64,000 nt of DNA from Candidatus Eiseniibacteriota bacterium (GCA_038231135.1 JBBRLX010000007.1:65475-129474); one strand, 5' to 3'. Positions 29,345-63,717 are shown, numbered from the stretch's first letter. A program made the numbers and translations. The notes: generated by a model from the letters alone, not told the origin.

Positions 29345-29345
<1 letters not shown>
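28464..29345 (-). CDS. DUF58-domain protein (MoxR-associated VWA-like protein)
   Basis: The product matches the DUF58 family across LEIRSRHLVEDLFAGRSVSVFKGRGIEFEEVRAYVPGDEVRDIDW. Its start is coupled to the moxR stop (TGATG). Confidence 0.85.
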
Positions 29346-30334
<989 letters not shown>

Positions 30335-40059: not shown

Positions 40060-40349
40060 GGAGTCACGTTCTCGACGATCGGCGGCACGAGGAAGAACGG
40101 CCCGTCGGTCTCGGGCGCCCCCGCCAGCGCGGCGTCGGCGCCAAGCACCCGGCCGTCGGGAGCGTCGTCGCGCAGCGGCGCGTCGGCCGGCGCGAACACC
40201 ATCGGATCGCAGCCCGTGAGATCCAGCCGCTCGAGCGCCGCCACGAACTCGAGCACGCTCGACAGCTCCGCCGCCATGCGTGCGATGCCCGCCTCCGGCA
40301 GCTCGAGCCGGGCGAGCGTGGCGATGCGACGCACTTCGTCACGATCCAA
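40056..40349 (-). CDS. gatC: Glutamyl-tRNA(Gln) amidotransferase subunit C
   Basis: The product is 97 aa and contains RIATLARLELPEAGIARMAAELSSVLEFV. It sits in a gatC-gatA-gatB order with a 4-nt overlap into gatA. Confidence 0.85.
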   Translation of the reverse strand: MDRDEVRRIATLARLELPEAGIARMAAELSSVLEFVAALERLDLTGCDPMVFAPADAPLRDDAPDGRVLGADAALAGAPETDGPFFLVPPIVENVTP

Positions 40350-42663
40350 GCACGGCCTCCCCGGTCAGGAACCGGCCCAGCACCTTCTTCACGCGGGTGC
40401 CGAACCGCACGGTGTACTTGATCTCACCGCCGGCCTCCTCGGCCGCCACCACCACCCCGTCGCCGAACTGCTCGTGGCGCACACGCTGGCCGACGCGCCG
40501 GTCGGCCCGCGCGGCGGCCGACACGCGCAACGGCGTGCCCGGTGTGATCGTGTCGAGATCGTCGTACTCCCCCGCCTCGGCCGGCGCCGCGTCCTCGTCC
40601 CAGCGGCTCTTGTTCTCGCCCCAGCGCTCGCGCATATTCGGGCTCCAGCCGGGCCGCGTCTGGGCGGCATGGCGGGCCGCCGCCGACGGCCGCGGCGCGT
40701 CGAACCGCCGCCGGTCCTCGCGCACCAGCAGCGCTGCGGGGATTTCGTCCACGAATCGCGACACCTGGCCGCCGCGCGCGCCGTCGAACCGGCGGCGGAA
40801 CGCCGCGGCCGTCAGCAACAGCTCGTCCTGCGCGCGCGTGAGCGCCACGTAGAACAGCCGGCGCTCCTCCTCGAGCTGGTCCGCGCGCTCGAGCGACGAG
40901 GCATGAGGCATCAGTCCCTCCTCGAGGCCGATGATCACGACCGCCGGGAACTCGAGACCCTTCGCGTTATGGCCGGTCAGCAGCAGCACGCGGTCGCCGT
41001 TCTCGCCCGCGCGATCGGCGTCGGTGACGAGCGCCGCCTCGGCGAGGAATCCCGGCACCGTGGCGCCGGCTACGCCCGTGAACGTGCCGGCCGCCACCAG
41101 CAGCTCCTCGACGTTCGCCCGGCGTTCGGCCGCGTCCTCGCCGTCCCCCAGCGAATCGAGATAGCGGGTGTGCTCGAGCACTCGCGCCAGCACCCGGTCG
41201 ACCGGGGCGTCGAGCAGCGTGCCCAGTTCGTCGAGCAGCTGGAGCAGCTCGGTCGCGCCCCGCCGCGCCGCGGGGGCGATGCCCTGCTCCGCCACCAGCG
41301 CCCGCAACGCGGACGGCGCGGGCGCGCCGTTCGCCAGGACCCGCTGCTCGACCGCCGCGCGCACCACGCTGCCGAGCCCGCGGCGCGGCGTGTTCCAGAT
41401 CCGCCAGAACGCCGCGGCATCGGCGGGATTCGCCGCCACCCTCAGGTAGGCGATCAGGTCCTTCACCTCGCGCCGCTGGTAGAACGACACGCCGCCCACG
41501 AGTTCGTACGGGATCAGCGAGTGGCGCAGCTCGGTCTCGAGCGCCCGCGACTGCGCGTTCGTGCGGTACAGCACCGCGCAATCCGCGAGTTTCCCGCCGC
41601 GCGCCACGCGCGCGACCAGGAACTCGCGCACCCGGCGCGCCTCGTCCACCTCGTCCGCCGCCAGCACGAACCGCAGCGGCACGCCGGGGCCGCGCTCGCT
41701 CCACAGCGTCTTGCCCTTGCGCGCGCGGTTGTTCGAGATCACGGCGTTCGCCGCGTCGAGGATGCTCGTCGTCGAACGGTAGTTCTGCTCCAGCCGCACC
41801 ACGGCGGCGCCGGCGAACGTGGTCTCGAAGTCGAGCACGTTCCTCAGATCCGCGCCGCGCCAGCCGTAGATCGACTGGTCGTCGTCGCCGACCACGAACA
41901 CCGTGCCGCGATCGCCCACCAGCGCCTGGATCATGCGGAACTGGGCGTGGTTCGTGTCCTGGTATTCGTCGACCAGCACGTGCGAGAACCGCGCGCGGTA
42001 ACGGTCCCCCACGTCGGGATGGGTGCGGAACAACTCGACGGTGCGGGCGATCAGGTCGTCGAAGTCGAACGCGCCGCAGCGGCGCAGCTCCTGGTCGTAC
42101 AGCGTGTAGGCTTCCGCGGTGCGGCGATCCTGCGGCGAGAACGCCGTGCGCGCGAAGTCCTCGGGACCCACGAGCGAGTTCTTCGCGTCGCTGATCGCCG
42201 CCAGCACCGCTCCCGCCCGCCAGGTGCCGTCGGGCCAGCCGAGCCGCCGGGCGATATCCTTGATCAGCGACTCCTGGTCCTCACGATCGTAGATCGCGAA
42301 CGCCGCCGGCACGCCGAGCACGCGCGCCTCGCGCCGCAGGATGCGCACCGCCGTGGCATGGAACGTCCCGACCCACAGCTCCCTGGACACGTCGCCGACG
42401 AGGCTCGCGATCCGGGCGCGCATCTCGCGCGCCGCGCGGTTCGTGAACGTGAACGCCAGGATCGCCGATGGCGCCACGCCGCGATCCAGCAGCCACGCCA
42501 CGCGCGCCGTGAGCACGCGGGTCTTACCGCTCCCCGCCCCCGCGATCACGAGCACCGCCCGCGCCTCGTGCTCGACCGCCGCACGCTGGGCGCTGTTGAG
42601 ACTGTCCAAAAGCTGCAAGGGTACCTCGGGTAGTCGCAGGGGTTCCAAAGGGTTCCCCTGCAA
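40339..42663 (-). CDS. uvrD: ATP-dependent DNA helicase (UvrD/PcrA family, SF1)
   Basis: The product has a Walker A motif (AGAGSGKTRVLTARVA), motifs II-VI (VDEYQDTN ... VGDDDQSIYGWRGA ... GTFH) and a C-terminal Tudor-like domain (GQRVRHEQFGDGVVV). Confidence 0.9.
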   Translation of the reverse strand: MQGNPLEPLRLPEVPLQLLDSLNSAQRAAVEHEARAVLVIAGAGSGKTRVLTARVAWLLDRGVAPSAILAFTFTNRAAREMRARIASLVGDVSRELWVGTFHATAVRILRREARVLGVPAAFAIYDREDQESLIKDIARRLGWPDGTWRAGAVLAAISDAKNSLVGPEDFARTAFSPQDRRTAEAYTLYDQELRRCGAFDFDDLIARTVELFRTHPDVGDRYRARFSHVLVDEYQDTNHAQFRMIQALVGDRGTVFVVGDDDQSIYGWRGADLRNVLDFETTFAGAAVVRLEQNYRSTTSILDAANAVISNNRARKGKTLWSERGPGVPLRFVLAADEVDEARRVREFLVARVARGGKLADCAVLYRTNAQSRALETELRHSLIPYELVGGVSFYQRREVKDLIAYLRVAANPADAAAFWRIWNTPRRGLGSVVRAAVEQRVLANGAPAPSALRALVAEQGIAPAARRGATELLQLLDELGTLLDAPVDRVLARVLEHTRYLDSLGDGEDAAERRANVEELLVAAGTFTGVAGATVPGFLAEAALVTDADRAGENGDRVLLLTGHNAKGLEFPAVVIIGLEEGLMPHASSLERADQLEEERRLFYVALTRAQDELLLTAAAFRRRFDGARGGQVSRFVDEIPAALLVREDRRRFDAPRPSAAARHAAQTRPGWSPNMRERWGENKSRWDEDAAPAEAGEYDDLDTITPGTPLRVSAAARADRRVGQRVRHEQFGDGVVVAAEEAGGEIKYTVRFGTRVKKVLGRFLTGEAVLGS

Positions 42664-42868: not shown

Positions 42869-45800
42869 CTAGAACTCCGGACCTACGGACACGTGCCAGC
42901 GGGGGCGGCTGGTGCCGGCCAGGTTGGTGTTCCACCCCGCGTCGACCTTGAGGATCAGGAAGTAGAGCGCCGTGCGGATGCCGGCGCCGAAGCCGAGCTT
43001 CAGGTCGTCGAGACGGCGGCGGCCGTCCTCCACGCTCGACAGCCGCACGCGGTCGGCGGCGTCCCACACGAATCCCGCGTCCGAGAACAGCGCGCCGCGG
43101 AGGTTGAACACTCCGACCGGGATCGGTCCCAGGATGCCGAGCTGCTCGATGAACGGGAATCGCAGTTCGGCATTGACGATCGCCACGCGCGAACCGAGCA
43201 GGTCGAAATCGGGATAGCCGCGCAGCGTCGAATACCCGCCGACCCGGAACGTCTGCCGGTCGGGGCCGTCGCTGCGGCCGGTGAGTACGCGGGTGGCGAA
43301 CGTATAACCCCGCGTGAGGTCCCAGTAGCGCCGCGCGTCGAACGTGACGGTCTGGTACTGCAGCGCGTCGTGGAGCACCGCGAACGCCGGCGCGTAGGTC
43401 AGGTTCCAGCGCTGACCGTTCACGGGGCCGTAGTAGCCGAACAGCGCATTGTCGCCGATCAGCGACAGCGACGGCGACGTGACGGCGCGGTACTGCCGGG
43501 TGGACTTGAAGAAGTTCCCGGCGTCGTCCTCGGCGAAGAACTGCCGGTCGACGAACATCTGGGTGAGGTTGAGCTCCGCGCGCCGGAACCGGTCGAACGG
43601 ATACGACGCCGTGACGAGGCCGCCGAACGTTCGCTCCGAGAACAGCCGCGTGCCGTCGAGCTGTTCGCCGAGCGTCGTCACCTGCGACGAGAAGTAGTCC
43701 TTGAAATGGAACAGCCCGGCGCCGAAGTCGACCCGCCGCTTGAGATAACTGTAGACCACGAGCGCGTTCGTCTCGCTGATCGAGCTCGAGAACAGGTCGG
43801 TCGCGACGTACAGGCTGTGGTCGCCGAGGAAGTCGCTGAACGCGAACTGGGTGCTGCCGACGAAGCCGAACCCGCTGCCGGCGTAGAACCCGCCCCCGGC
43901 GTAGTCCGGCGCCAGCCGCACGTGGTAGCGCGACGGTCGCTGCGCCAGCACCGAGTCCGGCAGCGCAAACGGGCCGCCGTGCTCGACGAGCGCGATGCGC
44001 GGCACGATCGCGGCCACGGTGTCCATCGGCACCGGCAGCCGGGTCTCGCCGGCGAACCGGTCGTCGATGGCGCCCCGGCCGGAGCGCCTGGTCCCGGCGG
44101 GCGGCCCGAGCCCGCCGGTCGCGGGGAACGCGAGCGTCGAATCCTCGTGCGTCACGGTCACGCTGTCGGGCAGCGTGCGCGCGAGCGCCGCCACTCGCGG
44201 CGGCGGCGCGGCCGAGTCGGCGGGCGCGCTCCGCGCGGTCGCCGAATCGAGCACCGCTCCCGGCGAGCGCCGGCGCAGCCGCTCGAACACCGCGTCGAGC
44301 GACAGCGGCTCCCTGACCGCGAACACGTCGAACCCGCCGCGGTTGAACGCCGCGAACACCAGCCGGTCGTTCTGCCGCGACCACGACAGGCTCTGCACGC
44401 CGCCGAGCACGTCGGTGAGCTGCACGTACGAGCGCTCGGCGACGTCGTACAGATAGACATTGGACGTGCCGTCACGGTCGCTGATGAACGCGAGCCGCCG
44501 GCCGTCGGGAGACCACGCGGGCGCGTGGTCGTTGCCGGAGGTGTCGAGCGTGCGGGTGATCGCGCCCGATGCCAGATCCAGGCTGTAGAGCGCGTAGCTG
44601 CCGAAGCCGCCCGCGCGGGCCGCCGGTTCGAGCACGACGGGCGCGAGCCGGTCGGAGGCGAACGTCAGCGTGCGGCCGTCGGGCGTCCACGCCGGCTCCT
44701 TCTCGTCCCAGGTGTCGTTCGTGAGCCGCGTGGCCGCACCCGTCGCGGCGTCCACCAGCCACAGGTCCGACCGGCCGTCCTTCACCCCGGCCACCGCGAT
44801 CGAGTCGCCGTGCGGCGCCCACGCCGGGTAGTACAACGCCTCGCACGGGAGCTGGATGCGCTTGAGCGTGCTGCCGTTGCGCGCCGACACCACGTACAGC
44901 ACGTCGCTGCCGCCGCTCTTCGCGGTGAGCGCGAGCCTCGAGCCATCGGGCGACCAGGTGATCGAGCTGCGGTACGACGGGATCGCCTCGTACTGGTAGT
45001 TGCGCTCGCCGCGGATCACGCGGTGCAGCACCTTGCCGTCGAACGCGGACATCACGTAGATGTCGGTGTACTGGCGGCGGTCCGAGAACCACGCGATGCG
45101 GTCGCCCTGCGGCGAGATCGCCGGCGCGGTGTTGAGCGTGCTCTGATCACGCCGGTGATCGGTGAGCCGCCGAGCGAACTCCTCGGGCGACTGCTTGTGC
45201 GCCACGGTCGGCCAGTAGCGCTTGCGCAGCCAGTTGCGCCACTGTTCGTCGAACTTCGGCACCGACAGTCCGACGCTGGCCTGGAACGCGCGCTCGAAGC
45301 CGTGGTTCTGCCGGATGCGCTTGAGGATATCGCGCAGCCGGTCCTCCCCGTAGCGCTCGACGAGATAGCCGAGCGCCGACTGCCCCTGCTTGTAGACGAT
45401 GTAGCCGCCCGAGTACATGAGCGGCGGCAGGTAGCCCTCGATGATGCCGTCGCGCAGGAACATCTCGGCGTTCGGTTCCATGCCGAGCGACAGGTACTCC
45501 GCCATGCCCTCGGCGAACCACAGCGGCACCGAATAGAAGCTCTGCCGCGCGATCAGCGCCGCCGCCGACCCGCCGTACAGCATGTCGAACATGATGGCAT
45601 GCGTGAGTTCGTGCACCACCACGTGGCGCAGGTCCTCGTAGGAGCCGGTGAACGGCAGCACCACCCGGTTGCGCAGCACCTCGGTGAACCCGCCGGTGCC
45701 GGCGTCGATCAGCTCGGGCGTGACGTTGGTCTGGGAGAACTCGTTGTGGGAGCCATACAGAATGATGGGGACGCGGCGCGACAGCACATGGCCCATGCGC

Positions 45801-46027
45801 ACCGACAGCACGGCGTGCGTCTTCTCGGCAAGGTCGAGCACCCGCATCGCGAGCGAGTCCTCGCCGGCGTAGAAATACACGTCGAAGTGGTCGGATTCGA
45901 TCGAGCGCCAGTCGTGGACGCTGTACTGGACCTTGTTCTGGCCGAAGTACTGGGCGTGAGCGGTCCCGGCGGGAACGAGGGCGAGCAGCGCGAGCAGTGC
46001 GCCCACGGCAATGTGCAGACGATGCAA
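42869..46027 (-). CDS. Outer-membrane Omp85-family (bacterial surface antigen D15) beta-barrel protein with an N-terminal zinc-metallopeptidase-like domain and a TolB-like PD40 beta-propeller; it has no POTRA domains
   Basis: It has a signal peptide (the proposed TTG start gives MHRLHIAVGALLALLALVPAGTAHA, with GGGGTGAG upstream). The N-terminal domain has an HEXXH motif (VVVHELTHAIMFD) and FAEGMAEY. The central region has PD40-type repeats (WSPDGSRLAL, WAPHGDSIAV, WTPDGRTLTF, WSPDGRRLAFISDRDG). The C-terminal ~330 aa aligns to the BamA barrel (RGY ... VNAELRFP ... ALFSDAGFVWD ... GFGAGIRT ... WHVSVGPEF, ending in an aromatic residue). Confidence 0.7.
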   Translation of the reverse strand: MHRLHIAVGALLALLALVPAGTAHAQYFGQNKVQYSVHDWRSIESDHFDVYFYAGEDSLAMRVLDLAEKTHAVLSVRMGHVLSRRVPIILYGSHNEFSQTNVTPELIDAGTGGFTEVLRNRVVLPFTGSYEDLRHVVVHELTHAIMFDMLYGGSAAALIARQSFYSVPLWFAEGMAEYLSLGMEPNAEMFLRDGIIEGYLPPLMYSGGYIVYKQGQSALGYLVERYGEDRLRDILKRIRQNHGFERAFQASVGLSVPKFDEQWRNWLRKRYWPTVAHKQSPEEFARRLTDHRRDQSTLNTAPAISPQGDRIAWFSDRRQYTDIYVMSAFDGKVLHRVIRGERNYQYEAIPSYRSSITWSPDGSRLALTAKSGGSDVLYVVSARNGSTLKRIQLPCEALYYPAWAPHGDSIAVAGVKDGRSDLWLVDAATGAATRLTNDTWDEKEPAWTPDGRTLTFASDRLAPVVLEPAARAGGFGSYALYSLDLASGAITRTLDTSGNDHAPAWSPDGRRLAFISDRDGTSNVYLYDVAERSYVQLTDVLGGVQSLSWSRQNDRLVFAAFNRGGFDVFAVREPLSLDAVFERLRRRSPGAVLDSATARSAPADSAAPPPRVAALARTLPDSVTVTHEDSTLAFPATGGLGPPAGTRRSGRGAIDDRFAGETRLPVPMDTVAAIVPRIALVEHGGPFALPDSVLAQRPSRYHVRLAPDYAGGGFYAGSGFGFVGSTQFAFSDFLGDHSLYVATDLFSSSISETNALVVYSYLKRRVDFGAGLFHFKDYFSSQVTTLGEQLDGTRLFSERTFGGLVTASYPFDRFRRAELNLTQMFVDRQFFAEDDAGNFFKSTRQYRAVTSPSLSLIGDNALFGYYGPVNGQRWNLTYAPAFAVLHDALQYQTVTFDARRYWDLTRGYTFATRVLTGRSDGPDRQTFRVGGYSTLRGYPDFDLLGSRVAIVNAELRFPFIEQLGILGPIPVGVFNLRGALFSDAGFVWDAADRVRLSSVEDGRRRLDDLKLGFGAGIRTALYFLILKVDAGWNTNLAGTSRPRWHVSVGPEF

Positions 46028-46190
46028 GAACTCACCCCTCTTGAGCCCCGGATTCGGGTTCGCCCGGCCGAAGCGCCCACACGATGATACCCCGGAACCG
46101 TCCCGGATTCCCAAACCTGCATCGGCAGTTCCGCCGGCCCCCGTGAGGTCATGAATTGCCCCGGCCGGCACTCCTAACCGGCCTGCCGCC

Positions 46191-49100
46191 TCAGTATTCC
46201 CACCGAGCCTTGAGGTTCACGTTGAAGTCCGGCGGCGACGTGCTGGAGACGTTGGCGGTGCCGGGCCGGTGCTGGGTGATCTCGGTGGTCAGATAGATGA
46301 ACCGGCTCAGCCGGTACTCGGCCTCGAGATCGCGCTCGAGGAACGTCGAGGTGCCGGGCCCGGTCGGGGTCCGCTCGAGCCCCGGCAGGTGCTGCCGGTA
46401 GCGCAGCGCGATCTGGGGGGAGACCTGGGTGCCGGCGGTGAGGATCACGCCGCCCTCCCCGCCGAACAGCCCGCCCCGGTCGCGGTCGATCTGCCACTCG
46501 TTGATGTAGCCGCGGAACGCGCGCGACATCTCCGACGAGAACGTGCGGTTGATCGCGCGCGTGATGTAGTTGTCGAGCGGGTCGCCGAGCGGCACGCCGG
46601 CGGCGCCGGCGGTGAGCCGGCTGAGCGTCAGGTTCTGGAGGATCTCCGCCTGCCCCCAGGCCGCCTCGTCGCTGCTGAGCACGATCTTGGGCTCGTTCGC
46701 GCGGCCGGTGATGTGCACCGTCACCTGCGACTGATGGGTCTGGCCGTTCTCGTACACCGGCACCTGGGTCACCGCCGTCGCGTCCAGCGTCGGGTTCACG
46801 CCGGACACGTTGTCGAACGTCAGGTCAACGTTCTGCACGTCGAACCGGTTGCTGAGGAAGTAGTACTTGCCGCGCAGCGCGTGCATCTCGCCGTAGAGCA
46901 CCAGCGCCTCGGGCCGCTGCTCGACGTCGAGATTCAGGTTGAACTCGATGTCGCCGTCGGGCGGCTGCCAGTGCACGTTGTTGTTCGCGGACAGGTGGAC
47001 GTTGTAGGTCCAGAACAACGGTGCCGCGGTCTGCGCCACCAGATCCTGCTCGCTGACGTTCGCGAAGTCGTACAGGATCACGGCGCGACGCAGCGTGGCG
47101 TTGCCGGTCACGTACGGCAGCCGCTGCCCGCGCACCACCGGGCCGTCGGTGATCTGGAACGCGCCGTCGAACAGCGCGGCGTACAGACCCGGCTCCGTGG
47201 TCGCGATCTCGGTGACGCCGAGCTTGAACTGGTAGCCCTTGAGCCCGCCGTTCGCGAGCTCCACGGTTCCGCTCCCGGTGACGCGGCCGCGATCGCCCTG
47301 CCGCGCCGTCAGAGTGTCCACGGTGATCTTCGCTTCGTCGAGCCGAACGCTCGCGGTGACGTTCTGGAACAGCTCGTCACGGCCGGTCATGCGCACGACG
47401 CCGTCGCTCACCTTGAGCGTGCCGTCCAGGTCCGGGTGCCGCGGTGTGCCCGTCACGCTGGCCCGCAGCTCGAACTTCCCCGCGGCGGTGCCGATCTGCG
47501 GCACCACCAGCCGCGCCATCGACAGGTCGCCGTTCGGGATGTCGATGCGCCACGCCATCGGCGACTCCGGCACCTCGACCGGGCGCCCCATCGCGAGCAC
47601 GAGCGGCATCGCGCCGGACGCCGTCGATTCGCGGCCGCCGCGCTGCATGTGCAGCTCCGGCACCGTGAGCTGCCCGGCGGCGTAGCGGGCATGACCGCGC
47701 ACGTCCTCGATGTCGATCGCCTGCCACGTCAGCTTGCTCGCGTCGAATGTGGCGTCGAGCACCGGCCGCACCGGACTGCCCTCGATGCCGATCCGCCCGC
47801 TCACCGTGCCGCCCCAGTCGTGCGCGGCGGGCACCAGCTGCCGCAGCCGGTCGAGCGGCAGCGCGGCTCCGGTCAGCTCACCGTTCCAGTCCCCCGCGCC
47901 TTCGATCCAGCGCAGGACGCCGGCCGCGGTCAGCGTGTCGGGCCAGGCGTGCGCCAGATGGTCGAACGCCAGCGAACCCGTCACGCTGCCGGCGGCGATC
48001 CGGAACGCGCCGTTGCGCACCAGCACCGCCCCCGGCCGGCCTTCGAGCTCGAACCGCAGCGAGTCGGCGGCGTGACCATCCCAGCCGGGACGGGACACCG
48101 CCGCCGCCATGTTCCAGTGGGGATCGCCGGCGGCCCCGCGCACCTCGAGCGTGGCGTCGGCGGCCCCCGCCAGGTGGACCTCGGGGGGCATGCCGAGCCG
48201 CGACAGATCGAGCCGCTCGGCCCGCGCCTGCCAGTCATAGCTGCCGCCCGGCACCGCCCAGCGGCCGGTGATGGTGACCGTGGCCAGGCTGTCACGCGCG
48301 ACCAGGCGGTCGAACGTGACGCCGCGCGCGTCACCGGCGAGCGTCACCGGCGCCTCCGCCCGCCAGTCGAACTGCGAGCTGCGCAGCCGCGCGCGATCCA
48401 GCGCCAGCTGCCATGCGCCGGCGTTCCAGTTCGACCGCCCGGCCATCGTCACCAGCGTGTCGCCCGCGAACGCCGACAGATCCTCGAGCGCGATCGTCTG
48501 GTTGCCGAGCAGGAACGGCGTCGCGACGCTGTCGAAGTGGAGGCCGAGGAACGTGACGTTGCCGAGCCGCGCGCGGGCGGCGAGGTCGGGGGCGGGCAAC
48601 AGCGCCCCCGACGCGTCGTCGAGCGCCCAGCGCGCCGCCTGCATCCCGAGCCAGCTCGTGCCGGTGCCGGTGAGGTTGCCGGTGACGAGCAGCGCCCCCG
48701 CCTTGCCCTCCACGGTGCCCTCGCCGTGGCCGAGCATTCCCTTGATGCCGCTGGCGCGGCCGTCGGGCCACTCCTCGAGCGGCAGGTTGTCGACGCGGTA
48801 GCTGCCGGTCCAGCCCTGCTTCGTGGTCATGGCCCGCAGCAGCATCGTGCCGCCGCGCCGCACCACGTTTACGGCGAAGCTGTCGGGGGCCGCGTTCGGG
48901 AACTCGACGTTCACCGTGCCGCCGTCCACGCGCCAGCCCTGCAGCTCGGAGGTGGTCAGCGTCGCGACGAGATTCGCGGTCTGCGCATGGCTGTGGGTAT
49001 CGACGGCGTAGCGGAACGTGCCGGCCACGACGCCCTTCGGCCAGCCGGTGATGCCGATCGCGCCCCAGCGGCTGGGATCGGCGGTCTCGACCGCGCCGCC

Positions 49101-50285
49101 GATGTTCCAGCCGGCCCTGGACCATTGGAGATCGCCCGCGAGATTGCCCGCCGCCGACACCAGGTGCAGCGGCTCGAGCTTCACCACCCCGTGATCCCAC
49201 CGCGCCACCCCGGAGGCCTGGGCCGGCAGGTCCTTCCACGTTGCGGAGCTCGTGAACTGCGCCGTCCACACCCGCGAGCCTGAGGCGGTGATCGAGCCGC
49301 GCGCCTCGCCCGGCACGTCGAGCGTGTGGTTGTCGGTGACCTCGGACAGCCAGCGCCACGACAGCCGCGCGACCTCCAGATCCACGTGCCGGATCCGCGT
49401 GGAGTCGGCATCGAGCCATTCGGCGACGCCCTTGAGCTCGAGATCGTCGGTATGCAGGCGGTCGAGCCGGATGCGGACGGTGTCGCCCTTCTCGACCGAG
49501 CCCTTGAGCTCGAGGTGCCGGGTCCGGAACGGACCCTGGGCCCAGCGCAGGTGGCGCACGACGCCGCGGGTGCTGGCGCCGATCGACACGCCGGCGTCCA
49601 GGTCCATGTCGCTCACCGGGTCGATCGCGGCGGCGATCGCCACCGAACCGTGCAGCACGCGCAGGTTGACGTCGAGCGCCGTGCTGCCGCCGGTGGCGCT
49701 GCCGCTCGAGCGCCACACCGGCGCCCGCAACCGCCCGTCCTTGCCCTTCGAGATCCGGATCACCGGCGACTCGATGACCACGTCGATCGTACGCCGGTCG
49801 CGACGCAGCCATTGCAGCGGCGAGTAGTTGAGCTGGATCCACGGCGCCTCGAGCAGCGCCGGCGTCTCGCCGTCGGTGAAGTACACCCGGGGCTTGATCA
49901 GCCGCACCCGGTCGAACGGATTGCCGCTGATGTCGTGGATCTCGACCTGCACGTCGCTGCGCTGCGCGAGTGCGCCGTTGATCACCAGCGTGAGCTCCTT
50001 CGCCACCAGCTCGGTGCGCCGCGCGAAGTACAGCAAGGCACTGACGATCGCGATCACCACCAGCCCCACCAGGATCAGCGCGACGAGCCCGATCAGCTTG
50101 CGCACCGTCCAGCGCACCTGCTTGGGCACATGCTCGACCACTTCCTCGACCGCGTGCCCCAGCTCCGCGACCTCGTGACGCAACTCCTCGACAATCCCCT
50201 GCGGCTCAGGCGGCGGCTCCGGCGCACCTCCGCCGGATCCCAATTCCGGGTCGCGCGGAACGAGCGGATCTTCCGGCGGAGTCAT
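46191..50285 (-). CDS. tamB: Translocation and assembly module protein TamB (AsmA-like / DUF490 family)
   Basis: The ORF is 1364 aa with an N-terminal TM anchor (LIGLVALILVGLVVIAIVSALLYF), a long beta-rich body and a DUF490-like C-terminus (GEMHALRGKYYFLSNRFDVQNVDLTF ... NLKARWEY). Confidence 0.8.
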   Translation of the reverse strand: MTPPEDPLVPRDPELGSGGGAPEPPPEPQGIVEELRHEVAELGHAVEEVVEHVPKQVRWTVRKLIGLVALILVGLVVIAIVSALLYFARRTELVAKELTLVINGALAQRSDVQVEIHDISGNPFDRVRLIKPRVYFTDGETPALLEAPWIQLNYSPLQWLRRDRRTIDVVIESPVIRISKGKDGRLRAPVWRSSGSATGGSTALDVNLRVLHGSVAIAAAIDPVSDMDLDAGVSIGASTRGVVRHLRWAQGPFRTRHLELKGSVEKGDTVRIRLDRLHTDDLELKGVAEWLDADSTRIRHVDLEVARLSWRWLSEVTDNHTLDVPGEARGSITASGSRVWTAQFTSSATWKDLPAQASGVARWDHGVVKLEPLHLVSAAGNLAGDLQWSRAGWNIGGAVETADPSRWGAIGITGWPKGVVAGTFRYAVDTHSHAQTANLVATLTTSELQGWRVDGGTVNVEFPNAAPDSFAVNVVRRGGTMLLRAMTTKQGWTGSYRVDNLPLEEWPDGRASGIKGMLGHGEGTVEGKAGALLVTGNLTGTGTSWLGMQAARWALDDASGALLPAPDLAARARLGNVTFLGLHFDSVATPFLLGNQTIALEDLSAFAGDTLVTMAGRSNWNAGAWQLALDRARLRSSQFDWRAEAPVTLAGDARGVTFDRLVARDSLATVTITGRWAVPGGSYDWQARAERLDLSRLGMPPEVHLAGAADATLEVRGAAGDPHWNMAAAVSRPGWDGHAADSLRFELEGRPGAVLVRNGAFRIAAGSVTGSLAFDHLAHAWPDTLTAAGVLRWIEGAGDWNGELTGAALPLDRLRQLVPAAHDWGGTVSGRIGIEGSPVRPVLDATFDASKLTWQAIDIEDVRGHARYAAGQLTVPELHMQRGGRESTASGAMPLVLAMGRPVEVPESPMAWRIDIPNGDLSMARLVVPQIGTAAGKFELRASVTGTPRHPDLDGTLKVSDGVVRMTGRDELFQNVTASVRLDEAKITVDTLTARQGDRGRVTGSGTVELANGGLKGYQFKLGVTEIATTEPGLYAALFDGAFQITDGPVVRGQRLPYVTGNATLRRAVILYDFANVSEQDLVAQTAAPLFWTYNVHLSANNNVHWQPPDGDIEFNLNLDVEQRPEALVLYGEMHALRGKYYFLSNRFDVQNVDLTFDNVSGVNPTLDATAVTQVPVYENGQTHQSQVTVHITGRANEPKIVLSSDEAAWGQAEILQNLTLSRLTAGAAGVPLGDPLDNYITRAINRTFSSEMSRAFRGYINEWQIDRDRGGLFGGEGGVILTAGTQVSPQIALRYRQHLPGLERTPTGPGTSTFLERDLEAEYRLSRFIYLTTEITQHRPGTANVSSTSPPDFNVNLKARWEY

Positions 50286-50353
50286 GAGCCGATCACCAGC
50301 CCGCGCAGCCGCGGCGCGGGAGCGCAGCCGACGAAACAGGCAACCACGTGCCG

Positions 50354-50504
50354 CGATGGCGTGCGGGGTGAGGTTCCGGAGGCGGGGACCGAGCGCAGCG
50401 CGCGAGTGCAGGGATGCGCGGAGCGCTGCGCGAGTAGCGAGGACCCGCCAGGAGGGCGGGTCCGAAGCGTCCCCGCCGTAGGAACCTCACCCCGCACGCC
50501 ATCG
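50354..50504. repeat. A 151-bp element with 35-bp terminal inverted repeats (32/35 matching) enclosing an 81-bp spacer that has inner hairpins, in the bamA-tamB intergenic region
   Basis: The left arm is cgatggcgtgcggggtgaggttccggaggcgggga (50354-50388). The right arm is tccccgccgtaggaacctcaccccgcacgccatcg (50470-50504), which is its reverse complement with 3 mismatches. An inner 8-bp-stem hairpin, gacccgcc-aggag-ggcgggtc, lies at 50442-50462. A 14-bp palindrome, TCACCGCGCGGTGA, lies at 50548-50561. The two short opposite-strand MACGVRF ORFs in the track mirror this repeat. Confidence 0.7.
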
Positions 50505-50577
50505 CAGCGAAGAACCCGTCCCCGCCGGGGGAATCTCACCCCGGTCGTCACCGCGCGGTGAAGGCGCAGAACACGCA

Positions 50578-52485
50578 TCAGAACGCCGGCCCAATCGCAA
50601 ACTGAAAAATTCCCCGCTGCCGCTTCCCCGTCTCGTCCGGCCGCGCCCACCAGGTGAAATCCACCCGCAGCGGCCCGAACGGCAGCTGCAGCCGCGGTCC
50701 GAAGCCGAACACGAACCGCACGTCGTTCGGCGTCATGCGGCTCGAGCTGATCTCGGGCACGAACCGGCCGCGCTTCACGGCGTCGAACCCCGTCCATACG
50801 TTGCCAGCGTCCACGTACAGCTCGAGCCCGAGCGGCCCCAGCACGTCGACGCGCAGTTCCACGTTGCCCTGCAGCAGCACGAGGCCGCCGTTCGCCGGCA
50901 GCTCGCGTTCGTCGTAGCCACGCAGCGAGTTTACGCCACCGATCTTGAACCGGTCGAACACCGGCACGCGCGCCACCCCGGGATCGGTGGTGGAGTCGCT
51001 GGAGAACAACACGTCCTTGCCGAACGGCCGGATGACGCCGCCGCGGGCGTGGGTCGCGAGCAGCCAGCCCGGACGCAGCGGCGTATACCACGACGATTCG
51101 AGGTGCTGCTTGGTGAAGCTCGACGTGCCCTGCAACGGGCCGCCCGCGACCTCGGACGTGAACGCCTGGTACGACCCCCGCGTCATGAGCACCGGATGAT
51201 CGCGCGTGTCGCGGGCGACCTCGAGCTGCAGCCGGTGCGTGGTATAGGACGGCTCGAGCAGCGAATCGCCGACCGTGGGGTCCGTCACCACCTGGCTCTG
51301 CGTCACCCACGCGTTGTCCTGGGTGAGCGCCAGCGTGGCGTAGCGGCCGAGCTGGCGCGACACCTGGAAGCTGACGCCGCGCGACTGGCTCTCGATCAGC
51401 CGGGGGGGGCTGGTGGGGCGGTCGTGCTGGTTCACGTAGTACAGCGTGAGCAGCCCGCGGGTACGCGTGGCGAACAGCCACGGCTCGAGCAACGTGGTCT
51501 CGATCCGGCTCAGGAGGAACCGCGCCTGGCCATCGAGCGCGAGCCGGCCGTCCACCGTGCCCTGGCGGCCGCTGCCGAGCAGGCTGCGGTGGCCCCATTC
51601 GCCGGTCGCCAGCACCCGTTCGCTGGTGCCGCTGCCGATGCCGGCGTCCACCCAGCGATGGCGGCGCTCGTGGAGGCCCAGGTCGAACTCCACGCGGGCC
51701 GCGGTCGAATCCATGAGCGGCGTCATCTGCACCTGGTCGAACATGCCGGTCTCGTACAGGTGCTCGACCGATTGCTGCACGCGGGTGGAGCGGTACACCG
51801 CGTCCGGCTTGATCAAGAGCTCGCGCCGCACGAAGTGCTCGTTGACCGACAGCTTGTCCAGGTCCGGGATGCGGACCTCGCCGAACCGGAACCGCTGGCC
51901 CTCGGTCACGTCGTAGCGCACGTTCATCGAGAAGTCGTGGCGCTCGGTGACGGCGTGGACCGAGGGGAAGTACCCGCGGTCCTTGTACGCCTCGGCGATC
52001 TTCGCGGTGTCGGCCACCAGGAAGTACGGGTTGAACGCCTTGTGCCGTTTCGCGAACAACAGGCGGCGCAGTGCGTCGCCCTGGATCGCCGTCACGCCCG
52101 TGAGGTCGATGCGGCCGATGTGGGTCTGGCGGCCCTCGATGATCTTGAACCGCACGATCACGGTGCCGGCATCGTGCCCGGGCACGAGCTCGTAGCCGGC
52201 GGCGACGTCGAGGTAGCCGTGCTGGTGGTAGACGTCCTCGATCGCCTGGACGTCGGCGCCGAGAAAGTCCATCCGCAGCACCGGCATCTGGCGCGACAGG
52301 ATGTGCCCGCTCGCCCGCGTCTTGAGCGCCTTCTTGAGGTCCTTCGCGTTCACGTGCCTGCGGCCTTCGAACCGAACCCCCGCGACGCTGGTGAGTTCGT
52401 TCGGCAGGCTGGTGGCGGCGCGCGCCAGGGGTGCGGGACCGAGCAGCATCACCACGAACGCAAACCGGGCCAGTGCCGTACGCAC
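50578..52485 (-). CDS. bamA: Omp85-family outer-membrane protein assembly factor (BamA/TamA-like) with POTRA domains
   Basis: The product has a signal peptide (ALARFAFVVMLLGPAPLARA), POTRA-like repeats, and an Omp85 barrel (FKIGGVNSLRGYDERELPANGG ... VELRVDV ... GNVWTGF ... IFQFAIGPAF). It sits in an rseP-bamA order, with tamB immediately downstream. The start is uncertain; I chose the GTG at 52485 because it avoids overlap with rseP. The track ORF start at 52698 would overlap rseP. Confidence 0.7.
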   Translation of the reverse strand: MRTALARFAFVVMLLGPAPLARAATSLPNELTSVAGVRFEGRRHVNAKDLKKALKTRASGHILSRQMPVLRMDFLGADVQAIEDVYHQHGYLDVAAGYELVPGHDAGTVIVRFKIIEGRQTHIGRIDLTGVTAIQGDALRRLLFAKRHKAFNPYFLVADTAKIAEAYKDRGYFPSVHAVTERHDFSMNVRYDVTEGQRFRFGEVRIPDLDKLSVNEHFVRRELLIKPDAVYRSTRVQQSVEHLYETGMFDQVQMTPLMDSTAARVEFDLGLHERRHRWVDAGIGSGTSERVLATGEWGHRSLLGSGRQGTVDGRLALDGQARFLLSRIETTLLEPWLFATRTRGLLTLYYVNQHDRPTSPPRLIESQSRGVSFQVSRQLGRYATLALTQDNAWVTQSQVVTDPTVGDSLLEPSYTTHRLQLEVARDTRDHPVLMTRGSYQAFTSEVAGGPLQGTSSFTKQHLESSWYTPLRPGWLLATHARGGVIRPFGKDVLFSSDSTTDPGVARVPVFDRFKIGGVNSLRGYDERELPANGGLVLLQGNVELRVDVLGPLGLELYVDAGNVWTGFDAVKRGRFVPEISSSRMTPNDVRFVFGFGPRLQLPFGPLRVDFTWWARPDETGKRQRGIFQFAIGPAF

Positions 52486-52604
52486 GGGCCCCAGTCTGCC
52501 GGCGACGAGCGTCCGCTTCCGGATTCGCGCCCTCGCCCATTCCAGTGAATCGTGTTGCGACGCTCCGGGTCCGCTATGGCGGAGTCGGGGCAACCGTGTT
52601 CTCC

Positions 52605-54002
52605 TCAGGGAGCGGAGGCAGGGGAGCGATGGGGGGCGGCGGAAGTCGCCGACGTCGACGTGCGACCGAGTGCGCGCTGGCGCTGCACCACGCGCCACGG
52701 ATCATTGGCCAGAATCAACACCAGCAGCGAGCCCATCATCACGAGACCCACCTGCTGGAACCGGGTGTAGGCCAGGGCGGAAATCTTCTGGCGGCGGATC
52801 GCCTCGATCACCGCGAGCAGGATGTGGCCGCCGTCGAGCACTGGCAGCGGCATCAGGTTGAACGCCATGATCGCGATGTTGATCATCGCGAGGAACTGCA
52901 GGAAGAAATCGGGACCGCGCTTCGCCTGTTCGCTCGCCACCTGGGCGATGAACAACGGTCCCCCGACGTACTCCCGGTAGTAGAGCGGGCGCGACACGGT
53001 GAGCCACATGCCGGCGTAGACGTTGCGGATCACTTCGCCGGTCGCGTGCCAGCCCATGTCGATCGACTCCAGGATGCCGGAGCGCTCGATGAACTTGCCC
53101 TGCCGCGGGGCTTCGATGCCAATCCGCGCGTTGTCGCTCTGCGCGCCCGTGTTCATCGGCACGATATCGACGTTAAACGTGCGTCCACCACGATCGACCG
53201 TCAAGTGCACGGTGCGATCGACATTGCCCCTCAAGGACAGCGGCAGATCGTCCCAGGTCGTGATTCGTTTGCCGTTCACCGCCAGAATGCGATCACCCTC
53301 CTTGATGCCCACCTTGTACGCCGGCATACCCGTTATGACGGCGCCGACGATCGGCAACGTTGGAGGCAGTCGAAAATTCGAGAACACGGGCTCGCGCCGG
53401 TCCGCCGGCACCGTGATCGTCAGGTGGCTGCTCAGGACGCCCACATCGGGCCGCTCGATGGCCAGCACGACCGCACGATCCTTCGGAACCCGGGAATATG
53501 CGTAGAACATCTGCTCCCAGGTCGACACCGGACTGCCGTTCAACGCCACCAGCCGATCCCCAGTACGAAAGCCGGCCTGATACGCGACGCTGGTGTCCGG
53601 CGTGGCCCCGAGCAAGTTCGGGTAGTCGGGACGGGATATCCCGATCATGCCGATCGTGCACAGGATGATCAGCGCGGTGAGGAGATTGCAGGCGGGGCCC
53701 GCGGCCGCGATCAGGATGCGGCCGTACCAGGGGTGCGACAGGAACTCCTCGTCCGAGTTCGGCATGTCGCCTTCGGGGCTCGGGCTGTCGCCCGCCATCG
53801 CGACGTAGCCGCCGAACGGGATCCACGCCAGGCGATACTCGGTGCCGCCCCGGGTGAACGAGAACATCGCGGGGCCGAATCCGAGCGAAAACCGGATCAC
53901 CCGGACACCCCGCCATTTGGCCATCAGGAAATGGCCGAGCTCATGGACAAATATGACCAATCCGAGCACCAGAATGCCCGGCAACACGAGATTCCAAGAC
54001 AC
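52605..54002 (-). CDS. rseP: RIP (site-2) zinc metalloprotease RseP, M50 family with PDZ domains
   Basis: The product has an HEXXH motif in TM1 (FVHELGHFLMA), PDZ domains and an LDG motif (LMPLPVLDGGHIL). The proposed GTG start at 54002 has AAGGA 7 nt upstream. The track 'M' at 54032 is a TTG codon. Confidence 0.8.
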   Translation of the reverse strand: MSWNLVLPGILVLGLVIFVHELGHFLMAKWRGVRVIRFSLGFGPAMFSFTRGGTEYRLAWIPFGGYVAMAGDSPSPEGDMPNSDEEFLSHPWYGRILIAAAGPACNLLTALIILCTIGMIGISRPDYPNLLGATPDTSVAYQAGFRTGDRLVALNGSPVSTWEQMFYAYSRVPKDRAVVLAIERPDVGVLSSHLTITVPADRREPVFSNFRLPPTLPIVGAVITGMPAYKVGIKEGDRILAVNGKRITTWDDLPLSLRGNVDRTVHLTVDRGGRTFNVDIVPMNTGAQSDNARIGIEAPRQGKFIERSGILESIDMGWHATGEVIRNVYAGMWLTVSRPLYYREYVGGPLFIAQVASEQAKRGPDFFLQFLAMINIAIMAFNLMPLPVLDGGHILLAVIEAIRRQKISALAYTRFQQVGLVMMGSLLVLILANDPWRVVQRQRALGRTSTSATSAAPHRSPASAP

Positions 54003-54222
54003 GGTCAAATCCTTATGGGCTAAGGTGTTCAACGCAGGCTACTGCCCGGGTTCCGAGCGGTCAAGCAGCGCCTCGAAGGGAATCGATACGGCAATAGTCC
54101 AATGACTAGGCAAGAGCCGGACCGCCGGCCGTAACCGCCCCGGTGAGTCGTACACCGTGACCCCGGCGGCATTCGCCTGCACCGGGTTGGATTCCCCCAA
54201 CCGGCGATTCGGCTCGCACGAT

Positions 54223-55347
54223 TCACGAACGCCGGTGCGATTGCACGACTTCCTGATATGCCGCGAGCGTGCGGATCGCCATGTTCTCGGCGGAAAACCG
54301 TGCGGCCGTGCGGCGCGCGGCCCCGGCCATGGCGAGGCGCAGCGGCGTCTCCCCCACCAGCCGCGTGATCGCCGCCGCCATCGCGTCTGCGACGACCGGG
54401 TCGGGGCCCTTTGGCACCAGCACTCCCGAGACCTGATCGTCCACCACCTCCGGCAGGCCACCCACACGCGTCGCCACCACCGGCACGCCGAGCGCCTCCG
54501 CTTCGACCGCGGCGCCGCAGAACCCCTCGTTGCGCGACGGCACCAGCAACAGCGCGCACCCGGCGACGAGCGCCGCGACGTCGTCGCGCGCTCCGAGCAG
54601 GATCACCCGTCCACCGAGCCCGCGCCGCGCGATCGCGGCCTCGAGCGGAGCGCGCAGCGGCCCGTCGCCCAGCCATACGAATCGCGCCTCCGCGGCGCGG
54701 CCGCCGGCCGCGCGCAGGCGCTCCGCGACGTCGAGCAGCAGCGCGTGGTGCTTCTCCGCCGTGAGCGCCGCGACGGTGGCGAGCAGCGGAGTCCCCGCCG
54801 GCACGCCGAGCCGGGCATGCAGGGACTCGCCGGGACGGCCGGCCGCGGCGCGCAGCGCCGCGAGATCGACGCCGCTCGGCACCACGATCGCGCGGCCGGC
54901 CGGCACCCCGGCACGGAGCAATTGCGCGCGCGCCGCCTCGCTCACGCACAGCCAGCGCGCCACCGGCAACCGGTACTTGAGTCGCGACCACGGGCTGTTG
55001 CCCACCGGGAACGCCACGCGGCGGCTCGCCACCACCGCGCGGATGCCGGCGATCCACGCTGCCGCCGCGCCGACCGCGTGCGCGCGCGCGCTGTGCAGGT
55101 GCACGACGTCGGGGCGCTCCGCCCGCAGCGCCGTGACCGCCGCCGCGAATGCGGCCACGTCGAGATCGCCGCGCGCGGACCACGCGCGCACCGGGACGCC
55201 CTGCGCCGCGAGCCGGTCGAACAAGGGACCGTGCGGCGCGAGCACCACGTTCGTCACGCCGTGCGCCGCGAGCCCGGGCACCAGCCACGCGATCTGCTGC
55301 TGGCCGCCGCGCCAGTCCCGCCCGGTATCCAGGTGCGCCACCTTCAT
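54223..55347 (-). CDS. Glycosyltransferase family 4 (GT-B, GT1/GT4 clan)
   Basis: The product has a GT4 N-terminal domain (MKVAHLDTGRDWRGGQQQ) and a C-terminal EX7E-type motif region (SRNEGFCGAAVEAEALGVPVVATRVGG). Confidence 0.8.
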   Translation of the reverse strand: MKVAHLDTGRDWRGGQQQIAWLVPGLAAHGVTNVVLAPHGPLFDRLAAQGVPVRAWSARGDLDVAAFAAAVTALRAERPDVVHLHSARAHAVGAAAAWIAGIRAVVASRRVAFPVGNSPWSRLKYRLPVARWLCVSEAARAQLLRAGVPAGRAIVVPSGVDLAALRAAAGRPGESLHARLGVPAGTPLLATVAALTAEKHHALLLDVAERLRAAGGRAAEARFVWLGDGPLRAPLEAAIARRGLGGRVILLGARDDVAALVAGCALLLVPSRNEGFCGAAVEAEALGVPVVATRVGGLPEVVDDQVSGVLVPKGPDPVVADAMAAAITRLVGETPLRLAMAGAARRTAARFSAENMAIRTLAAYQEVVQSHRRS

Positions 55348-56417
55348 CGCGCGCCCCGGAACTGCTCGAGGATCTCGGCCAGCGCGGCGCCGATTCGTTC
55401 GGGGGTCGCCACCTCGAGCGCGCGCGCGCGGCCGCGCTCGCCGAGCCGCTCGCGGGCCGCCCGGTCACGCACCAGTTGCGCGAGCACGGTCGCGAGCGCG
55501 GTCGCGTCGCCTGGCGGCACCGTGGCCAGGTGGATGCGCGGCGTGAACACCTCGCGCACCGCGGGGCTGTCGCCGGTCACGACCGCGCGGCCGGCGGCGA
55601 GACCCTGGTAGACCTTGTGCGGGATCACGCGCCCCGCCTTGGCGGTGGTGCCGAACGCGCCCAGCACCACGTGGGCGCCGGCGAACGCCGCCGGCGCCTC
55701 CGCATAGGGCCGTGGTCCATGGAACGTCACGCGCAAGAGCCCGAGCCGCGCAGCCTGTGCCCGCATCGCGTCGAATTCGATCCCGTTCCCGACCAGCTCG
55801 ATCCCATAGTCCGGCAGCGACCCCGCATCGCGCTCGAGTTCCGCCGCGGCCGCGATGACGTGCGCCACGCCGTGGAGCGGCAGGAACCCTCCCACGTACA
55901 GGATCCGCACCGGCCCCGCCGCGGGCGGCGGTCCGATGTCGAAGAATGCCCGCTCCGCCCCGACCAGCACGCGGCGCACGCGGGCGCGATCGGCGCCCAG
56001 CGATTCGAACAGCGCGCCGTGCTCCCAGGTGTCGCACAGCACCAGGTCCGCCGCGCGCAGCGCGGCCCGGTCGATGCCGCGATTCCAGCGCGCCTGCCAT
56101 GAGCCCCCGGCATGGATCGCCCAGTCCCCCACCAGCGTGTCCCAACGCGACACCAGCGGATCGAACGCCACGAGCCGCGGGCCCGCGAGCGCGCGCGCCA
56201 GCGGCACGTCCTTGTGACGGAACTCGGGCACGAACATCACGTCCGCGCCGCCGCCCACCCGCGCGAACCGCGCGGCGAGCGCCGGCCAGCGCCGGAACGC
56301 GCGATGCTCGCGCACGCGGCACTCGACGACGTCGACGCCGGCGGACGCGAGGCCGGCGCGCAGGATGCGGTTACGCGGATACCCGGGATCGTAGGCGCCG
56401 AAGAATGCGACCCGCAT
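55344..56417 (-). CDS. Glycosyltransferase (GT-B fold)
   Basis: The ORF is 357 aa from MRVAFFGAYDPGYPRN, and the product contains VGGFLPLHGV ... PHKVYQGLAAGRAVV. The ATG at 56417 was verified and overlaps the GT4 start (ATGA). Confidence 0.65.
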   Translation of the reverse strand: MRVAFFGAYDPGYPRNRILRAGLASAGVDVVECRVREHRAFRRWPALAARFARVGGGADVMFVPEFRHKDVPLARALAGPRLVAFDPLVSRWDTLVGDWAIHAGGSWQARWNRGIDRAALRAADLVLCDTWEHGALFESLGADRARVRRVLVGAERAFFDIGPPPAAGPVRILYVGGFLPLHGVAHVIAAAAELERDAGSLPDYGIELVGNGIEFDAMRAQAARLGLLRVTFHGPRPYAEAPAAFAGAHVVLGAFGTTAKAGRVIPHKVYQGLAAGRAVVTGDSPAVREVFTPRIHLATVPPGDATALATVLAQLVRDRAARERLGERGRARALEVATPERIGAALAEILEQFRGAR

Positions 56418-56422
56418 CGGAC

Positions 56423-58750: not shown

Positions 58751-58790
58751 CACCCGCGGCTCCGCGGCACGTCGCGGCGTGGCGCGCGCA

Positions 58791-61406: not shown

Positions 61407-62123
<717 letters not shown>

Positions 62124-62820: not shown

Positions 62821-63591
<771 letters not shown>

Positions 63592-63717
63592 TGCGTTCCT
63601 CCTCAGGGGTTTTTCCGCCGCGCCGCCCCGGTCTCGAGACGCATGACCCACCGAAACCAGGCAACGGATCGGCGGGAACCCCAGCGTACGGGGACGGGCG
63701 TGGAGCTGAACTCGATG

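Follow-up and report, generated by a model that had tools for sequence, protein, structure and literature searches.

A three-POTRA Omp85 at the bamA position is encoded with TamB and a peptidase-propeller Omp85 in Candidatus Eisenbacteria

Introduction

The genes described here lie in a 64-kb stretch of DNA from a Candidatus Eisenbacteria/Eiseniibacteriota genome (GCA_038231135.1, JBBRLX010000007.1:65475-129474), referred to below as the window; all positions are those of the whole stretch. Three genes follow rseP on the minus strand (Table 1). The first codes for an Omp85 protein with three POTRA domains (the POTRA-Omp85), the second is tamB, and the third codes for another Omp85, without POTRA domains, in which a peptidase domain and a propeller precede the barrel (the chimeric Omp85). 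With moderate confidence, the three genes were read as an operon, conserved across Eisenbacteria and deep relatives, in which a positional bamA orthologue with three POTRAs works with TamB and to which a peptidase-propeller Omp85 is usually added. All components are members of known families, and operons of bamA and tamB that lack tamA have already been published; the three-gene combination has not been described previously, and no paper on BamA in Eisenbacteria was found in the literature.

A first-pass annotation of the window, made from the DNA alone, had pointed to these genes, and all three were found by Pfam, on the minus strand, where it had placed them. It had drawn a parallel with Borrelia, where TamB works with BamA and no TamA is present. 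That parallel holds, as an interaction between BamA and TamB is described for Borrelia burgdorferi (Iqbal et al. 2016, PMC5582053). Its view of the arrangement as unusual had to be given up, because Heinz et al. (2015, PMC4494059) describe such operons, with bamA and tamB but no tamA, as widespread and as present in several phyla.

Results

Conservation of the rseP-Omp85-tamB order

The order frr-uppS-cdsA-dxr-rseP is the classical neighbourhood of bamA in E. coli, and the POTRA-Omp85 was read as a positional bamA orthologue for this reason. More than 60 loci of the Eisenbacteria type were compared, from about 55 species-representative genomes and from the loci L001-L003, L083-L085, L089 and L090. 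In the window and in all of these loci the Omp85 gene was located downstream of rseP within this cluster (uppS is absent from the rpsB-dxr gene run of the window). Synteny in related genomes had been proposed as a check by the first-pass annotation; the order rseP-Omp85-tamB was constant in every locus examined. These included the loci on two complete chromosomes (OY970342.1 and OY970178.1) and those of deep lineages, in which the Omp85 is 28-36% identical to the window protein and the DNA has 59.5-68% G+C, with lower-GC members at 59.5% and 66%.

Distances between the genes were short. The rseP-Omp85 junction of the relatives ranged from overlaps of 20-38 nt up to a gap of 98 nt, the Omp85-tamB junction from an overlap of 26 nt up to a gap of 18 nt, and tamB was separated from the chimeric Omp85 gene by 11-132 nt. 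In the window, the rseP stop codon lies 11 nt ahead of the called start of the POTRA-Omp85. The three genes are probably co-transcribed. The upstream gene order from rpsB to dxr and the uvrD boundary were the same in the relatives.

A lipoprotein signal (for example ...VVATGC/GK) was found in some deep relatives of the window Omp85 (P0274, P0282, P0283 and P0293). P0282 (L090, 10001-11965, on a 1.41-Mb JGI contig) is an Omp85 with a lipobox in the rseP-Omp85-tamB position; the gene order of L090 is rplM-rpsI-rpsB-tsf-pyrH-frr-uppS-cdsA-dxr-GT4-rseP-Omp85-tamB-uvrD-gatCAB, where GT4 stands for a family 4 glycosyltransferase (GT). This suggests that a TamL-like lipid anchor arose within the BamA-positional lineage.

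Outside the clade, the reverse order, tamB followed by a three-POTRA Omp85 gene, was found in Calditrichota, in one Caldisericaceae genome and on one further contig. In one 3.95-Mb genome outside the clade, tamB was followed by the gene for a 917-aa Omp85. As a side observation, on a contig of 57% GC (L086, 3314-11926) tamB and then a three-POTRA Omp85 gene lay directly downstream of genes for an extracytoplasmic function (ECF) sigma factor, a zf-HC2 anti-sigma factor and a DegP-like protease. This context hints at envelope-stress control of a pair resembling TAM, the module for translocation and assembly.

Architecture and family of the POTRA-Omp85

The protein is 671 aa long as called (P0001; the maximal open reading frame, ORF, has 706 aa) and, as the first-pass annotation had remarked, short for a BamA. 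Its signal peptide ends ...LLGPAPLARA/ATS, a signal-peptidase-I site, and the lipobox cysteine that marks TamL is absent from its N-terminus. POTRA domains were counted by hidden Markov model and by structure prediction, the check that had been proposed for this gene. Three were found by Pfam and exactly three in an AlphaFold2 model built on 60 orthologues (predicted local distance difference test, pLDDT, 89.4), as beta-alpha-alpha-beta-beta units at residues 33-118, 122-196 and 200-275. They are followed in the model by a 16-strand barrel over residues 278-632. The barrel family PF01103 was matched with 129 bits; the (V/I/L)RG(Y/F) motif of loop 6 has the form GGVNSLRGY, in which R523 and G524 do not vary among 60 sequences.

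Of all NCBIfam models, TIGR03303 (BamA) gave the best score, 201.8 bits, over profile positions 150-741 only, which correspond to POTRA3-5 and the barrel. The TamA equivalog model NF047950 reached 52 bits (cut-off, 625) and the TamL model NF052279 reached 56 bits (cut-off, 400). In searches of the PDB with phmmer, BamA chains were matched, their POTRA3-5 aligning with the three POTRAs of the window protein (residues 175-457 of the N. gonorrhoeae BamA), and TamA was not among the matches. The top Foldseek matches of the model were also BamA chains (E = 1e-37 to 1e-30). In the same fold comparison, BamA and TamA were matched about equally, so that structure comparison does not discriminate between the two. 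A profile of the deep-lineage orthologues gave 322-480 bits with named BamAs (from Rokubacteria, Desulfosarcina, Roseomonas and Sabulicella) and at most 230 bits with proteins labelled TamA.

In neighbour-joining trees, the Eisenbacteria-type Omp85s formed a clade or clades of their own with 92-100% bootstrap support, apart from proteobacterial TamA and from the Calditrichota-type three-POTRA clade (96%). Clustering with TamA, which the first-pass annotation had named as a finding that would speak against bamA, was not observed in these trees, the backbone of which was unresolved (support of 33% or less). Its argument that the rseP context favours BamA over a TamA-like protein is favoured by the clade-wide position after rseP, by the best-scoring model being that of BamA and by the lack of clustering with TamA.

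TamB and the spacer before its gene

The annotated tamB was confirmed by a TamB/DUF490 domain (PF04357) at residues 991-1339, with a score of 107 bits (cut-off, 22.4). An N-terminal hydrophobic anchor, LIGLVALILVGLVVIAIVSALLYF, was read from the translation at residues ~64-87. The gene adjoins the POTRA-Omp85 gene in all relatives.

In the window, tamB is the next gene after that of the POTRA-Omp85, as the first-pass annotation had stated, although not directly so: a spacer of 292 bp (50286-50577) lies between the two, against 1-18 bp at this place in relatives. The spacer holds an inverted repeat with 40-nt arms (50350-50389 and 50469-50508) that are 90% complementary, and a third copy of the arm at 50517-50554. 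As RNA, the palindrome has a predicted fold of -192.9 kcal/mol (z = -7.7). The motif was not found in the rest of the window or in 86 related loci, and the spacer had no match in Rfam. It looks like a small insertion within the operon of the miniature inverted-repeat transposable element (MITE) or repetitive extragenic palindromic (REP) type.

The third gene codes for a WD40-like Omp85 with a peptidase domain

A third, POTRA-less Omp85 beside tamB, as annotated, is encoded at the expected place. The 'chimeric' Omp85 of the first-pass annotation belongs to a subfamily that already has a name. The protein has the features of the WD40-like Omp85 subfamily, namely a barrel without POTRAs, a TolB-like PD40 propeller and a peptidase domain of the MA clan ahead of the propeller. 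This subfamily was named by Heinz and Lithgow (2014, PMC4104836), and Table S3 of that paper lists TolB and aminopeptidase matches for members from Caldithrix, Rhodothermus, Chloroherpeton, Cloacimonas and Sorangium. The subfamily is defined by sequence; a 2024 paper still describes the group by its domains only, and neither a function nor a gene-context link to tamB or bamA was found in the literature.

The signal peptide of the chimeric Omp85 ends ...GTAHA/QYFGQNK. In an AlphaFold2 model (pLDDT 76), the mature protein consists of a peptidase domain of mixed alpha/beta and helical structure (residues 28-275), a TolB-like propeller of six blades (289-562), a disordered and poorly conserved linker of ~85 residues (~596-680) and an Omp85 barrel (697-1043). 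No POTRA was found by Pfam or in the model. Peptidase_MA_2 (PF13485) was matched with E = 2.7e-11, and the residues of the HExxH...E zinc site (H130, E131, H134 and E164) are invariant in 48 chimera sequences; the catalytic motif is thus intact. A search of the PDB by sequence gave no relative for the peptidase domain.

Identity to the window proteins was compared over 37 genomes. The medians were 78% for the peptidase domain, 69% for Dxr, 66% for the whole chimera, 58% for RseP, 46% for the POTRA-Omp85 and 45% for TamB. Of the proteins of the cluster, the chimeric Omp85 is the best conserved. The chimeras of L001/L057 (OY970342.1) and L018 are more divergent, at ~50% over the whole protein (median, 66%) and ~50% over the peptidase domain (median, 78%). 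That of L001 is also shorter (989 aa), and Peptidase_MA_2 was not seen among eight of its nine Pfam families. The peptidase domain of L001/L057 and L018 is possibly degenerate or replaced.

In nearly all Eisenbacteria loci, the gene that separates tamB from uvrD was that of the chimeric Omp85. The exceptions were L023 (OY970178.1) and L090 (JGI contig Ga0679466_0000001), in which the order is rseP-Omp85-tamB-uvrD. Since the chimera is missing from the locus in these two cases, the third gene cannot be counted as an obligatory component of the module.

Topology and partners of the chimeric Omp85

Other Omp85 proteins have their N-terminal domains in the periplasm, and a periplasmic peptidase domain and propeller were assumed here for the chimera. 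An alternative, which we consider unlikely, is that the chimera is a self-exporting surface protease of type Vd, resembling PlpD, whose peptidase and propeller pass through or alongside their own barrel; the protein would then be a client of its bamA and tamB neighbours. The long linker between the passenger-like domains and the barrel would suit such a route. As PlpD demonstrates, export of an N-terminal enzyme by an Omp85 barrel is possible, and surface export is one of the two options raised by Heinz and Lithgow for Omp85-metalloproteases (PMC4104836); TAM itself was discovered via autotransporter assembly (PMC4494059). Unlike PlpD, however, the chimera has no POTRA between passenger and barrel. 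The conservation of the peptidase domain suggests a housekeeping role in the envelope, not an environment-facing enzyme.

TamB of E. coli contacts a POTRA domain of TamA. Docking of TamB on the POTRA-less barrel of the chimera, instead of or besides the POTRA-Omp85, with the three-POTRA protein as merely a neighbouring BamA, was judged improbable. The chimera does have a bona fide Omp85 barrel, and its gene stays close to tamB in nearly all genomes. L023 and L090, however, keep Omp85-tamB without the chimera, and outside the clade tamB pairs with POTRA-bearing Omp85s.

BamA or a dedicated partner of TamB

Several points weigh against the reading of the locus as an operon of a bamA orthologue. 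The POTRA-Omp85 has three POTRAs where five are expected of BamA, and its TIGR03303 score is below the curated equivalog cut-off of 297 bits. The unresolved backbone of the tree, the absence of the chimera from L023 and L090, and scans of the spacer for promoters and terminators, in which no match and no excess over shuffled sequences were obtained, are to be counted on the same side. Short 'BamA-like' proteins with 1-3 POTRAs are said always to coexist with a true BamA (PMC4104836), and the BamA paired with TamB in Acidobacteria is a duplicated one (PMC4494059). A canonical bamA may be present elsewhere in Eisenbacteria genomes, for example beside skp-lpx as in the locus L088 (see below).

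Of these points, the score below the cut-off, the coexistence of short proteins with BamA and the duplicate in Acidobacteria also speak for a rival reading, in which the POTRA-Omp85 is a dedicated partner of TamB, either a TamA analogue or a 'BamA-like' paralogue, at the old bamA position, and general insertion of outer-membrane proteins is the task of a canonical multi-POTRA BamA encoded elsewhere. This is a serious possibility, although one against which we lean. Three POTRAs and a barrel, encoded with tamB, make up the architecture of TamA and TamL; versions of the protein reminiscent of the lipoprotein TamL exist in related lineages (P0282), and the order of tamB and a three-POTRA Omp85 gene recurs in Calditrichota and other lineages. 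It is opposed by the bamA position after rseP, which is held throughout the clade, by the low scores of the TamA and TamL models (52-56 bits) and by the absence of grouping with TamA or the Calditrichota-type clade in neighbour-joining trees.

A second BamA was looked for. When contigs were scanned with the alignment of orthologues, each Eisenbacteria genome gave a single locus, and no second Eisenbacteria-labelled Omp85 locus appeared; two narrow peptide patterns were used, so specific that the absence carries little weight. The representative search listed BamAs of ~900 aa and of 740-790 aa, without taxon labels. One high-GC canonical locus was found (L088; ENA ERZ27252253, k141_3676297, 88 kb, 67.9% GC), in which lysS-lolCD-mcsAB-clpC are followed by a five-POTRA bamA (P0395), skp, a fused lpxC/fabZ, lpxA, lpxI and lpxB. 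Identical copies of its BamA were present in JGI metagenomes, otherwise with no relative above 36% identity. L088 is therefore not from the well-sampled, abundant Eisenbacteria; a rare lineage without close relatives is a misfit for that group. BLAST of the neighbours of L088 and of 80 further loci against Eisenbacteria sequence gave no match.

Other precedents point the opposite way. One BamA and a TamB are present in Fusobacteria, in diderm Firmicutes and in some Deinococcus-Thermus (PMC4494059), cyanobacterial BamA has three POTRAs (PMC4104836), and a Fusobacterium BamA of 675 aa (9ccg) was among the PDB matches. A further step would be that no five-POTRA BamA exists in Eisenbacteria and relatives, that a single three-POTRA BamA wired to TamB does the work of both TAM and BAM, the machinery for beta-barrel assembly, and that the chimera, more strongly constrained than BamA or TamB, is a third core component. 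In this strong form the proposal is doubtful. The more modest reading, a positional bamA orthologue working with TamB, is the one retained below.

Gene order of the window

The window has a G+C content of ~72%, and codon-position GC places almost every real gene on the minus strand. Along that strand, with coordinates falling, the order by Pfam is rpsI, rpsB, tsf, pyrH, frr, cdsA, dxr, a lipopolysaccharide (LPS)-core block, rseP, POTRA-Omp85, tamB, peptidase/PD40 Omp85, uvrD, gatC, gatA, gatB and purD (Table 1). A 752-aa ORF in another frame over the Omp85 gene (50282-52540) was rejected as a gene, having no Pfam match and the wrong codon-position GC pattern. The closest proteins were all from metagenome-assembled genomes labelled Candidatus Eisenbacteria or Eiseniibacteriota, and copies 100% identical to both Omp85 proteins were found on one 138,811-bp contig.

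Table 1. Coordinates of the features of the window
Feature	Position	Strand	Basis
rpsB	62821-63651	-	Pfam
tsf	62124-62726	-	Pfam
pyrH	61407-62120	-	Pfam
frr	60844 to ~61401	-	Pfam
cdsA	59969 to ~60800	-	Pfam
dxr	58791-59972	-	Pfam
LPS-core-type block, between dxr and rseP	54223-58790 (~4.6 kb)	-	Pfam
GT9 heptosyltransferase, in LPS-core-type block	57285-58322	-	Pfam
GT4, in LPS-core-type block	54223-55347	-	Pfam
rseP, M50 site-2 protease with PDZ domains	52605-54032	-	PF02163 at 188 bits, PDZ
BamA-type POTRA-Omp85, 671 aa as called (P0001), maximal ORF 706 aa	50578-52593	-	Pfam, three POTRA and Omp85
Putative palindromic insertion, Omp85-tamB spacer	50350-50555	.	40-nt inverted-repeat arms and third arm copy
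tamB, 1364 aa	46191-50285	-	PF04357
WD40-like/peptidase Omp85, 1052 aa as called (P0121)	42869-46027	-	Pfam, Peptidase_MA_2, PD40 repeats and Omp85; POTRA not among matches
uvrD, downstream boundary of the module; gatC, gatA, gatB and purD next	40339-42663	-	Pfam

The first-pass annotation had described the supra-operon rpsB-tsf-pyrH-frr-cdsA-dxr-rseP-bamA as conserved. Its genes and their order were found; dxr and rseP, however, are not adjacent, the LPS-core block being placed between them. The block contains a cytidylyltransferase-like gene and genes of the families GT9, GT2, GT1 and GT4. It was present in many, not all, Eisenbacteria loci and was reduced or absent in others. In L023 and L036, dxr is directly before rseP with no GT gene between; in L090 only a GT4 gene and in L084 a Wzy_C gene separates them. 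The block appears to be a variable cassette within a conserved supra-operon. As had been noted, skp and lpxD are replaced after the gene at the bamA position: no skp or lpx gene was found by Pfam downstream of the POTRA-Omp85 and tamB in the window, where tamB is followed by the peptidase Omp85 and then by uvrD-gatCAB. No Omp85 beyond the two was found in the 64-kb window.

Elsewhere in the window, an operon of the Bat/MoxR type was located at 22221-30367, with genes for a MoxR AAA ATPase (29345-30367), a DUF58 protein (28464-29345), VWA proteins (24661-26520) and a 1020-aa BatD-like protein (22221-25283). Pfam gave no match for several large ORFs within 25715-28255.

Discussion

Comparison with known systems

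The POTRA-Omp85 shares with proteobacterial TamA three POTRAs, a 16-strand barrel and a gene directly upstream of tamB. It differs from TamA in its NF047950 score (52 against 625 bits), in not clustering with TamA, in POTRAs that align to BamA POTRA3-5 and in its bamA position. Plastid Toc75 and cyanobacterial Omp85 are thought to work with a TamB homologue, the TamB-like Tic236. Like the window protein, they are of the BamA lineage and have three POTRAs (PMC4104836); they belong, however, to an unrelated phylum and have no rseP linkage and no protease-Omp85 partner.

By our own placement in the Fibrobacterota-Chlorobiota-Bacteroidota (FCB) group, Eisenbacteria are related to Bacteroidota. TamL and TamL2 of Bacteroidota (PMC12045153) are three-POTRA Omp85 partners of TamB and TamB2, and a lipobox like that of TamL recurs in deep relatives of the window protein such as P0282, P0283 and P0293. 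The window protein itself, unlike TamL, has a signal-peptidase-I site and no lipobox cysteine, and the TamL model gives it 56 bits, where the cut-off is 400. The tamL and tamB genes of Flavobacterium are not linked, and its tamL2 comes after tamB2 (PMC12045153); the order of tamB and a three-POTRA Omp85 gene in Calditrichota and other lineages resembles this tamB2-tamL2 arrangement.

In Borrelia, as in the window, a BamA-type Omp85 is encoded beside tamB and there is no proteobacterial TamA; a bridge by TamB from the inner membrane to the Omp85 would be common to both. The BamA of Borrelia, however, carries five POTRAs and its gene follows tamB, whereas in the window the Omp85 has three POTRAs, precedes tamB, follows rseP and has a third, Omp85-encoding gene attached. 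The chimeric Omp85 agrees with the WD40-like subfamily (PMC4104836) in having a POTRA-less barrel, ahead of which lie an aminopeptidase-like domain of the MA clan and a PD40 propeller of the TolB type. It is set apart from that subfamily by a fixed place between tamB and uvrD in most loci and by being the most conserved protein of its cluster.

A possible mechanism

The POTRA-Omp85 would descend from the bamA of its locus by loss of POTRA1 and POTRA2, and may act as a general insertase. By analogy with TamA-TamB of E. coli and BamA-TamB of Borrelia, the N-terminal helix of TamB would be held in the inner membrane, its body would cross the periplasm and its C-terminal DUF490 domain would dock on the POTRA-Omp85. 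Such a bridge may be used for the delivery of outer-membrane protein and probably also of phospholipid. The chimera would be a zinc metalloprotease anchored in the outer membrane, with its propeller and catalytic domain in the periplasm on a long flexible tether. The propeller may select unfolded polypeptides, and the enzyme may process or remove envelope proteins near the site of assembly. In this proposed role only, the chimera would resemble the periplasmic quality-control proteases of the BepA/DegP type, zinc or serine proteases that act on stalled or misfolded envelope proteins. Those proteases are soluble or peripheral, are not fused to an Omp85 barrel and belong to peptidase families other than that of the chimera.

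Significance

Three aspects of the locus appear to be new, namely a three-POTRA protein that occupies the rseP-linked bamA position throughout a candidate phylum, a WD40-like/peptidase Omp85 in fixed linkage to tamB, and lipoprotein variants within one positional orthologue group. A three-POTRA protein of the BamA lineage is kept at the ancestral bamA locus with TamB in an uncultured phylum that is abundant in soil, which fits the model of BamA and TamB as the original configuration (PMC4494059). Should their genomes hold no second BamA, Eisenbacteria would be a natural case of merged BAM and TAM functions.

For the WD40-like/peptidase Omp85s, the locus provides a first clue from gene context. 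The invariant zinc site and a peptidase domain more conserved than Dxr point to a role in envelope assembly, and the single-BamA reading, if true, would give this subfamily its first functional assignment. The occurrence of lipoprotein and non-lipoprotein orthologues in sister lineages suggests that TamL-like proteins can arise repeatedly from BamA. Current models are not overturned by these findings; they are extended to a new phylum, and two formerly separate pieces are linked.

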